Origin: a virus | Lineage: Duplodnaviria; Heunggongvirae; Uroviricota; Caudoviricetes | Strand: one strand, 5' to 3' | IMG/VR virus record: IMGVR_UViG_2923302340_000011 | Coordinates: 1 to 24,319 of that record | Length of the DNA stretch: 24,319 bases | Shown: positions 1 through 3,000 of the stretch, piece by piece | Layout of the letters: every line of letters begins with the position of its first letter | How positions within the stretch are numbered: the stretch's first letter is position 1 | Made by a program: the position numbers

Positions 1-3000
1 AAGAAATAGGGCTTCCACCTGGGAAGCCCTTTCTTTTTATAGTTCGGCTGTATGTAGGGTACAGCACGATGAATCTGTTAGAGGCGCAATAGTGACAGAT
101 TTGATTATCAATTCCTATTTTGTTCTAAGGATAAAACCTTAGGTTGTGATCATCCGCACAATCCCTTAGTAACGCCAGCGGTCATAACGCTGATATTTAG
201 GCACTTTTGGTGCTTTAATCGCCTTAATAACCCACACCACCGCAATCGCCAGTAGTAACCACGGCAGCAACTTAATCATCAATGCCAGCATACCGCCGAG
301 GAACATAATGGCCGTCGCCACAACCAGCGCAGCGATAATACCCAGCAACGAAACGCCGGTGACCATCAGCATGACAAAAAAGCCAATCACAAAAAGTAGT
401 TCCAGCATGATGCTCTCCCAAATATGAAATCTCTTGCTGGCATTACAAGAATCATGCCAAAAATAATCTATTGATTTAACAGCAAAACGCCCCGCGACGG
501 TGCGCAGGGCGTGGTGAATTTGACTACTTTTTGGTGAAAAGTTAACGCTTATCTGCCACCAGTTTGAGCGCGTGTTCCAGCACGTTAATGTCAGCACCAG
601 CTTTATGGGCATTTTCACTTAAATAACGCCGCCACTGCCGCGCGCCAGGAATACCCTGGAACAAGCCCAGCATATGCCGGGTAATATGGCCAAGATACGT
701 CCCCTGGCTGAGTTCACGCTCAATGTACGGATACATGGCGCGCACTACCGCCACCGGATCGGCATCGGTATCCGAGGAACCAAAGATCTCTCGGTCTACC
801 GCCGCCAGAATACCCGGATTCTGATACGCTTCGCGCCCGACCATCACGCCATCCATATGTTGCAAATGCGCTTTTGCCTCTTCCAGCGACTTGATGCCAC
901 CGTTAATCGACATTGTCAGATGCGGAAAGTCACGCTTCAGTTGATACACACGCGGATAATCGAGCGGCGGGATTTCACGGTTTTCTTTCGGGCTTAACCC
1001 CGAAAGCCAGGCTTTACGTGCGTGGATGATGAACATCTCACACTCGCCTTTGCCGGAAACGGTGTTGATGAAATCGCAGAGAAATTCATAGCTGTCCTGG
1101 TCGTCGATGCCAATACGCGTTTTCACCGTCACCGGAATCGACACCACATCGCGCATCGCTTTCACGCAGTCGGCAACCAGCTGCGCATTACCCATCAGAC
1201 ACGCCCCAAACATGCCGTTCTGCACCCGGTCAGACGGGCAGCCGACATTCAGGTTGATCTCATCATATCCGCGCGCTTCTGCCAGCTTTGCACACTGCGC
1301 CAGCGCCGCCGGATCGCTACCGCCCAGTTGCAATGCTACCGGATGTTCTTCTTCACTGTACGCCAGGTAATCACCTTTACCGTGAATAATCGCCCCTGTA
1401 GTCACCATTTCGGTATACAGCAACGTATTGCGGGAAAGCAGACGCAAGAAATAGCGGCAATGTCTGTCCGTCCAGTCGAGCATAGGAGCAATGCTAAACC
1501 GAGAATTCCAGTAAACACCAGTTTTTTCAGGCATCACGCTGGTTTGATTAATTTTTTGTGTTTCATGATTATCGTGCATTTTTGAACATTTCAGGCTGTT
1601 TTTCTCGCGTTAGGTTCCCGCACAGGTTCCCACGTTTTATGGGAACCCGAAATAACGAGGTCGTGTAATGGCGTACTATAACATAGAGAAGCGACTAAAA
1701 TCCGATGGCACACCACGCTATCGCTGTAATGTGATTATCAAAGAAAAAGGTGTTATCACTTACAGGGAAAGCAAAACATTCCCTAAACATGCTCATGCCA
1801 AAACATGGGGAACACAGAAAGTGATGGAATTAGATCTATATGGCATTCCATCATCAAATGCAGTTGACGGACTTACAGTCCGTGACTTACTACACAAATA
1901 TTTAAATGACCCAAATGCCGGAGGTAAAGCAGGCCGTACTAAAAGATATGTGCTGGAACTGCTTATGGATAGTGACATCTCCGCGATCAAACTATCTGAA
2001 CTGACAGAAAATGACGTAATTGAACATTGCAGGCTAAGAAACAACGCTGGTGCAGGTCCAGCAACAGTCAGCCACGATGTTAGTTATCTTGGCAGTGTTC
2101 TGGATGCGGCCAAACCTGTATACGGAATTAATTACACATCAAACCCGGCGAAAAGCGCTCGCCCATATCTACTTAAACTTGGTTTGATTGGTAAATCAAA
2201 CCGTCGTAATCGTAGACCAGCATCTGATGAACTGGACATGCTCATTGAAGGCCTTCAACAACGATCTACTCATAAATGCTCAAAAATTCCGTTCGTTGAT
2301 ATCCTCAAATTTTCTGTGTGGTCCTGTATGCGGATCGGAGAAGTATGCCGGTTACGATGGGAAGATCTCGACCAGGAACAAAAATCTATACTCGTAAGAG
2401 ACAGGAAAGATCCACGCAAAAAGGAAGGCAACCACATGAAAGTAGCCTTGCTTGGGGAAGCCTGGGATATCGTCCAACGACAGCCCAAAAAATCGGAATT
2501 CATTTTTCCATATAACAGCACTTCTGTTACTGCAGGATTTCAGAGGGTAAGAAGCAAATTAGGTATTAAAGATCTGCGATACCATGATTTGCGTAGAGAA
2601 GGGGCAAGTCGCTTATTTGAGGCTGGTTTTAGTATTGAGGAAGTCGCTCAGGTTACAGGGCATCGTTCATTAAACGTGCTATGGCAGGTATATACCGAAC
2701 TGTATCCGAAATCTTTACATAATCGTTTTGAAGAGCTCCAAAGGAGCAGAAATAAGACCTCTTGACACTGTTTATCCATACAGTTGAAAATAACACTGTA
2801 TACAAACACAGTATAGAGGGGCTTTTATGCGTATTGAGATCTGCATAGCCAAAGAAAAAATGACTAAAATGCCAAACGGTGCTGTGGATGCGTTAAAGGA
2901 AGAATTAACCCGACGCATCAGTAAACGTTATGACGATGTAGAGGTGATCGTAAAAGCCACCAGCAACGATGGCCTTTCTGTTACGCGCACCGCCGATAAA

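Follow-up and report, generated by a model that had tools for sequence, protein, structure and literature searches.

Each of the Salmonella prophages Gifsy-1, -2 and -3 encodes a homologue of DinI whose gene is preceded by a putative LexA box and is induced by DNA damage, elicited with mitomycin C or nalidixic acid (PMC3121763, PMC8072944). In Gifsy-2, exchange of the LexA-box segment for araC-PBAD abolished the mitomycin C-dependent activation (PMC3121763). With the Gifsy work, control of prophage dinI homologues by LexA has been established, and the locus described here adds another case. It lies in a stretch of DNA of 24,319 nucleotides (nt), positions 1-24,319 of the IMG/VR virus record IMGVR_UViG_2923302340_000011, which is referred to below as the window. 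Near the start of the window, between the integrase gene int and the tail-fibre genes of an Escherichia coli prophage, a dinI-like gene (2827-3075, plus strand) follows two tandem LexA boxes that overlap its predicted promoter. To judge from the sequence, control of this gene by LexA is very likely. No account of the E. coli cassette's tandem operators was found in the literature searched, a search that was not exhaustive.

The Gifsy dinI-antirepressor-irsA operon (Lemire, Figueroa-Bossi and Bossi 2011, PMC3121763) resembles the window locus in two respects: a prophage dinI homologue has a promoter of its own, damage-induced in Gifsy, and a LexA box lies close to the start codon, at 19 nt in Gifsy and 13 nt in the window. 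The two differ in architecture and setting. In Gifsy, one box overlaps a TATACT -10 element, whereas in the window cassette two boxes bracket the -10. The Gifsy DinI is a protein of 77 amino acids, 42.5% identical to the window protein, and its gene resides in the nin region, 3' of the replication genes, while the window gene is found at the prophage end, at the junction of int and the tail-fibre genes. In Gifsy, a co-transcribed antirepressor (gfoA or gftA) drives induction; the window cassette, by contrast, leads straight to a terminator, and no antirepressor gene is found in it. A single box over a TATACT -10, together with a small open reading frame (ORF) behind the gene, characterizes the 77-residue, nin-region type of Gifsy, mEp237 and Klebsiella; a small ORF is present 3' of dinI in Gifsy-1, mEp237, SEN34 and the Aeromonas phage pAEv1818.

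The chromosomal dinI genes of E. coli and Salmonella belong to the same family as the window gene (about 49% identity across the protein alignment, A1, including the C-terminal ETWESADDWF helix), and they too are LexA-repressed single genes; the box of E. coli dinI scores 4.00 on the heterology index introduced below, equal to the proximal box of the window. They differ from the window gene in having one functional box, the second box of the Salmonella gene being very weak (heterology index 17.6; PMC8072944), in being part of the core genome, and in lacking the extra residues of the 82-residue clade (12-13 and 62-63 in the numbering of the window protein). Several operators over one promoter, with tight repression, are a feature of other SOS genes, namely lexA with two boxes and recN with three. 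In Salmonella, the distance from the ATG to the ends of the lexA boxes is 6 and 27 nt, and the recN boxes are at 8, 26 and 48 nt (PMC8072944). The spacing in these genes is 18-22 bp as opposed to 28 bp in the window, and the products are unrelated. Finally, the phage 186 protein Tum is the product of a LexA-repressed phage gene and has a DinI-like C-terminal half (PMC3121763). Tum differs in possessing an antirepressor domain and in directly triggering induction, whereas the window protein consists of DinI only. The PHROG 189 profile, which the window protein matches, has 151 positions with the DinI part at 71-149, consistent with Tum-like fusions.

Two LexA Boxes Bracket the Predicted -10 Element

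A preliminary description of this DNA had placed two CTGT-N8-ACAG boxes, 28 bp apart, between a consensus -35 hexamer overlapping the int stop codon and the ribosome-binding site of the dinI-like gene; hexamer and boxes are present at the coordinates it gave. The box cores are CTGTTTATCCATACAG at 2768-2783 and CTGTATACAAACACAG at 2796-2811, their starts 28 bp apart. Both match CTGT-N8-ACAG exactly, have A or T at 8 of the 10 central bases, and fit the LexA palindrome CTG-N10-CAG (consensus TACTG(TA)5CAGTA). As 20-mers, the distal box 1 is CACTGTTTATCCATACAGTT (2766-2785, plus strand) and the proximal box 2 is CACTGTATACAAACACAGTA (2794-2813, plus strand).

Both sites were scored with a Berg-von Hippel heterology index, for which a matrix was rebuilt from 20 E. 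coli K-12 operators (PMC3009722, Tables 4 and 7); the values obtained are not exactly on the scale of Lewis et al. 1994. Box 1 has an index of 5.61 and box 2 an index of 4.00, inside the range of validated operators: the 20 training sites score 0.39-9.60 (0.7-12.9 in leave-one-out scoring), and the same matrix gives 4.00 for dinI, 4.05 for sulA, 5.23 for recA and 5.60 for uvrD. Box 2 is the best site in the window, and the site ranked third, with an index of 13.98, is far behind both boxes.

The two boxes are far beyond chance expectation. The window holds two sites with an index of 6 or less, against a mean of 0.001 per random window in a set of 2000 first-order-Markov windows, and the best site matched or surpassed box 1 in 0.05% of that set. 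The bare CTGT-N8-ACAG pattern occurs three times in the window, with 0.27 occurrences expected, and none of 100 shuffles reached three. The third occurrence, CTGTCATCATGGACAG at 14918-14933, has a GC-rich center and a heterology index of 16.8 and was set aside as a chance match.

The boxes are interleaved with the elements of a consensus-predicted promoter. The -35 hexamer TTGACA (2762-2767, plus strand) holds the int stop codon TGA (2763-2765) and forms the 5' edge of the mobile cassette discussed below. The -10 region TGAAAAT (2785-2791, plus strand) can be read in two registers, as TGAAAA after a 17-bp spacer or as GAAAAT after an 18-bp spacer. A consensus scan selected TTGACA-18 nt-GAAAAT, with 10 of 12 consensus matches, while the mEp460 phage record has a promoter annotated at the equivalent place as TTGACA-N17-TAAAAA. 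Box 1 occupies the spacer between the -35 and the -10; the two bases at its start also belong to the -35 hexamer, and its last base overlaps the first base of the -10 in the 17-bp register or abuts the -10 in the 18-bp register. Box 2 starts 3-4 nt past the -10, spans the predicted transcription start (around 2798), and ends 13 nt 5' of the ATG, about as far from it as the one box of other dinI genes. In either register, both boxes overlap the predicted promoter and the -10 lies between them. A Shine-Dalgarno sequence read from the DNA, GAGGGG (2815-2820, plus strand), is located 6 nt before the ATG at 2827; the relatives have GAGGGA, with A instead of G at position 2821.

Two substitutions, both A to G, are apparently private to the window. 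The one at 2786 turns the TAAAAAT of the -10 region into TGAAAAT, and the one at 2821 is next to the ribosome-binding site. In comparison with the corresponding prophage of E. coli strain 20Ec-P-124, two of the three mismatches in 1668-3263 fall inside the 66-nt dinI regulatory region. The changes at 2786 and 2821 could alter expression, or could be there by chance. Two other promoter arrangements were rejected, as neither has a partner hexamer at 16-19 bp: in one, a Gifsy-like -10 would overlap box 2, and in the other, G2786 would give rise to a new -35, TTGAAA.

Conservation of the Double Operator

A survey of 56 loci yielded 24 distinct promoter variants. In 23 of these, the window's own included, the promoter has two boxes, and all 23 keep the TTGACA, box 1, the -10, box 2 and the ribosome-binding site; the remaining variant is a one-box Klebsiella phage promoter. 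The -10 is TAAAAAT in every two-box variant but that of the window. Among 16 distinct versions of each box, with other genera included, conservation is 100% in the CTG and CAG arms and 72% in the central ten positions.

For a broader view, one genome per species was scanned across the Enterobacterales for dinI-family genes; the pattern applied to the genome contigs, [WR]E[ST]ADDWF, misses copies that read ADEWF, E. coli's own among them. In 74 of the 80 loci returned, the 130 nt upstream contain at least one LexA box with an index below 10; there is one box in 64 of them, and there are two in 10. The geometry of the window recurs in eight of the ten two-box loci, all eight from the 81-82-residue 'MRVEISIAKEK' clade to which the window protein belongs. 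Each of them keeps the TTGACACTGT junction, and the distance from box end to ATG is about 14-15 nt for one box and about 39-42 nt for the other. The two-box homologues of Erwinia and Mixta have 58-59% protein identity, and two more two-box loci, with 69-72% identity, are on contigs with doubtful organism labels. The other two of the ten, from Cedecea, have a weak second box and a different spacing. Because the two-box layout is common to the clade across genera, the double operator appears to be an old and maintained feature of the 81-82-residue DinI proteins. Separately, dinI cassettes of the enterobacterial type (46-72% identity) turned up on contigs labelled Chryseobacterium, Saccharibacteria, Wohlfahrtiimonas and Vagococcus; these are likely cases of contamination or mis-binning and not true hosts.

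This pattern of conservation bears on the idea that the palindromes arose by chance or serve a purpose other than LexA binding, be it an RNA hairpin at the end of the int message, a roadblock to read-through from int, or a site for another factor. The boxes do come directly after the int stop codon, yet nothing specific speaks for such a role, and the idea is extremely improbable in view of the random expectation of 0.001 sites per window, the movement of the boxes with dinI and not with int, the recurrence of the same promoter behind unrelated upstream sequences, and the combination of invariant CTG and CAG arms with drifting AT-rich centers, a pattern characteristic of LexA operators and not of RNA stems.

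A Self-Contained Mobile Cassette

The segment from about 2762 to 3190 has the hallmarks of a self-contained prophage 'moron' placed between int and the convergent tail-fibre genes: it has a promoter and a terminator of its own, an intermodular location, and copies in phage surroundings that are otherwise unrelated. Resemblance to other phages and genomes sets in at 2759-2762, i.e., at the -35 hexamer, and extends to about 3149. At least five unrelated upstream sequences precede the same promoter, and the neighbors of the cassette copies vary, with int, nleC, eaaC and tail-fibre genes among them. The promoter and gene (2762-3075) are present at full length in 1687 of 5426 complete E. coli genomes (31%), in up to 7 copies per genome, and the cassette is also carried by phages that convert their hosts to production of Shiga toxin (Stx), Stx1 and Stx2, and by cdtI-converting phages. 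The stop codon of the window's int ORF is supplied by the cassette's -35 hexamer, the int/dinI recombination junction being immediately 5' of TTGACA.

The existence of a DinI-like ORF 3' of the boxes, as initially proposed, is borne out by database matches. The 82-residue protein (2827-3075, plus strand) matches Pfam PF06183 (DinI) with an E-value of 1.2e-19 and 70.8 bits against a cut-off of 24.2, PHROG 189, 'RecA filament binding protein DinI', with an E-value of 4e-31, and the E. coli DinI of PDB 1GHH/7YWA with an E-value of 8e-13 over residues 1-81. Its acidic C-terminal helix is conserved and aligns with ETWESADDWF; E74, A76, D77, W79 and F80 are invariant in alignment A1. The acidic C-terminal helix of DinI is reportedly implicated in RecA binding. 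Phages cdtI and 2H10 have the identical coding sequence, which is intact in the window. In a group of related Stx2c and Stx1a phages, the DinI-like protein is extended to 86 residues through a four-residue tandem duplication, VDAL-VDAL.

Downstream of the gene, a putative intrinsic terminator (3142-3190, plus strand) consists of a 10-bp stem (3142-3151 paired with 3168-3177) and a 16-nt loop, followed by TTTTACTTTTTAT. The RNA of 3076-3195 folds with -30.1 kcal/mol (z = -4.8), and none of 200 shuffles is as stable. A consensus terminator scan returned nothing 3' of dinI because of its loop limit of 8 nt. No plus-strand ORF of at least 20 codons has its start in the interval from the dinI stop codon to the hairpin, and the dinI-like unit is therefore taken to be monocistronic. 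A 70-codon plus-strand ORF (3159-3371) that starts inside the hairpin loop was judged probably not a gene. A search of 2600-3600 against Rfam (E-values up to 1) found no RNA family, and a small RNA derived from the 3' untranslated region, comparable to the Klebsiella DinR, was dropped as a candidate because 3082-3180 is also found 3' of tail-fibre modules that have no dinI. This segment, terminator hairpin included, occurs alone after tail-fibre modules in dinI-less prophages, e.g., near zinT in strain 4/0. Part of it is labelled as a partial 'capsid protein' pseudogene by the NCBI annotation pipeline, a label that looks spurious.

Proposed Regulation of the Cassette

The preliminary description held that the dinI-like gene is under SOS control; the operator scores, the overlap with the promoter, the invariant arms and the cross-genus layout strongly support this claim. 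Taken as a whole, an explanation in which a moron carries a LexA-repressed promoter and expresses a RecA-filament-binding homologue of DinI is highly probable. From the arrangement of the sites we infer LexA occupancy, induction by damage, and a kinetic effect of having two operators. In an undamaged lysogen, LexA dimers would be bound to box 1, in the spacer, and to box 2, at the start site, bracketing the -10 and excluding RNA polymerase. Upon DNA damage, activated RecA would elicit LexA self-cleavage, and the promoter would fire only when both sites are empty; as both have to be vacated, induction is proposed to be tighter and later than with one box. The resulting monocistronic mRNA would end at the hairpin at 3142-3177, and the 82-residue product would bind RecA filaments via its conserved acidic C-terminal helix, add to the dose of chromosomal DinI, and alter the coprotease output of RecA. 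No expression data for prophage DinI-like genes were found for E. coli O157:H7 transcriptomes.

Several observations weigh against this explanation. The box spacing, 28 bp in most variants, is one base longer in three variants (four loci) and in phage BP-4795, and varies from 24 to 28 bp in other genera, which argues against strictly phased cooperative binding of LexA. G2786 replaces the critical second base of the -10 in the 17-bp register, which is the register favored by the Erwinia and Mixta homologues (TAAACA, TAAATA), and the promoter of the present copy may be weakened as a result; in strain D23580, a single-nucleotide polymorphism within the -10 silences the dinI-gfoA promoter of Gifsy-1 (PMC5322425). 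As for the consequences of expression, deletion of the Gifsy dinI homologues had no significant effect on prophage induction (PMC3121763).

If the effect of G2786 were severe, the present copy would be poorly expressed or silent, and its boxes would survive intact, as relics, ahead of a disabled promoter. The restriction of TGAAAAT to the window, when the two-box relatives all read TAAAAAT and the cross-genus homologues are A-rich at this place (mostly TAAA, once TTAAAT), would fit such a state, as would the concentration of mismatches to strain 20Ec-P-124 in the regulatory region and the D23580 precedent. However, the 18-bp register GAAAAT retains the second-position A and the final T and is the one that reaches 10 of 12 in the consensus scan, and the gene itself is intact and identical to those of cdtI and 2H10; silencing of the present copy is therefore deemed unlikely.

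The identity of the bound protein can also be questioned. A non-cleavable phage protein that has the LexA DNA-binding domain only could occupy the boxes together with LexA or instead of it, and so shut off the cassette and host SOS genes in lytic growth. A 108-residue protein of this kind is encoded by mEp460 (12026-12352 of its record) and by the near-identical 20Ec-P-124 prophage (1825-2151 of its record): it matches Pfam LexA_DNA_bind with an E-value of 2.9e-19, shows 43% identity with E. coli LexA's N-terminal domain, has a similar recognition helix (RSVNAAVEHL as opposed to RSPNAAEEHL), and is devoid of the cleavage domain. Yet its gene is outside the window, LexA dimerizes via the C-terminal domain that this protein lacks, and many DinI cassettes reside in other phage backbones, making its action at the boxes improbable.

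Prophage Induction or Host Benefit

The preliminary description suggested that the DinI homologue modulates RecA-dependent cleavage of the repressor and thereby prophage induction, a proposal that is plausible but unsupported. The phage mEp460, which has the same int-dinI module, encodes a CI-type repressor with a Peptidase_S24 domain, and a modulator of the RecA filament could therefore matter in principle; the immunity region of the present prophage is outside the window. Authors of Stx-phage genome reports speculated, without testing, that induction is limited by phage DinI (PMC8456039). Which way and how strongly cleavage of UmuD, LexA or a phage repressor would be affected, and hence prophage induction, is a matter of speculation. 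DinI is said to be able to stabilize RecA filaments and to block UmuD cleavage preferentially, which makes the sign of an effect on induction uncertain.

Alternatively, the operators are real, but the gene benefits the host cell instead of controlling prophage induction, as a conventional lysogenic-conversion moron would; this account departs from the preferred explanation in the biological benefit only. The effect of extra DinI would be to stabilize RecA filaments, with less UmuD processing and less SOS mutagenesis, or to help cells survive genotoxic antibiotics. The cassette moves independently among unrelated prophage backbones, beside cargo such as nleC and other effector genes, and genome-association studies tie prophage DinI-like genes to the evolution of quinolone resistance and to drug-susceptible ST95 strains. 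The Gifsy deletions without significant effect on induction point in the same direction, as does the preferential inhibition of UmuD cleavage reportedly seen in DinI biochemistry. On the other hand, the cleavable S24-type repressor of mEp460 leaves room for an effect of the gene on the induction of that phage itself. A benefit to the host is thus a serious contender, although we lean slightly away from it.

The elements above can be combined into a more elaborate scheme. In it, the double operator would be ancient and selected, the gene would fire only at deep LexA depletion, and up to 7 copies per genome would act as a dose-dependent brake on, or stabilizer of, the RecA filament, setting the induction threshold of co-resident CI-type prophages, Stx phages included; the phage protein with only the LexA domain might reset the operator in lytic growth. 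That all of these parts hold together is a long shot.

If the cassette works as inferred, about one-third of E. coli genomes hold at least one extra SOS-controlled DinI gene, and O157:H7 holds up to 5-7 copies, on lambdoid and Stx-converting prophages. Both the SOS response and the cleavage of CI-type repressors are triggered by the RecA filament, the target of DinI, so that copy number could affect SOS mutagenesis, quinolone tolerance, and the threshold for prophage induction and Shiga toxin release. With its conserved pair of operators, the promoter offers a compact and testable way into these questions and extends the known theme of mobile elements exploiting LexA.

Prophage Setting and Host Flank

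The window opens in the E. coli chromosome, and a lambdoid prophage comes next. The host gene dusA (542-1579, minus strand; Pfam Dus, E-value 8e-105) is followed by int, a tyrosine integrase ORF (1668-2765, plus strand) that reads away from dusA, then by the 82-codon ORF at 2827-3075 (plus strand), and then by convergent tail-fibre genes on the minus strand. The nearest records are phage mEp460 and its relatives and the dusA-integrated prophage of E. coli strain 20Ec-P-124. The prophage is taken to be mEp460-like, lambdoid, and integrated at dusA.

The dusA flank (window 1-1600) diverges by about 3% from 20Ec-P-124, as against three mismatches in the int-dinI arm (1668-3263), a contrast which suggests that the prophage arm arrived recently by horizontal transfer in a divergent host background. 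The dusA-int intergenic region (1600-1667) contains two copies of GGTTCCC and an inverted copy, GGGAACC (ggttcccgcacaggttcccacgttttatgggaacc); these repeats could be arm sites of the integrase, or part of an int promoter or operator at attL. In contrast to phage lambda, int reads away from the attachment site. Farther into the prophage, a side-tail-fibre protein of 792 residues (4486-6864, minus strand) contains a long Ala/Ser/Thr-rich repeat array built of KTSETNAK / AAKTSETNA units.

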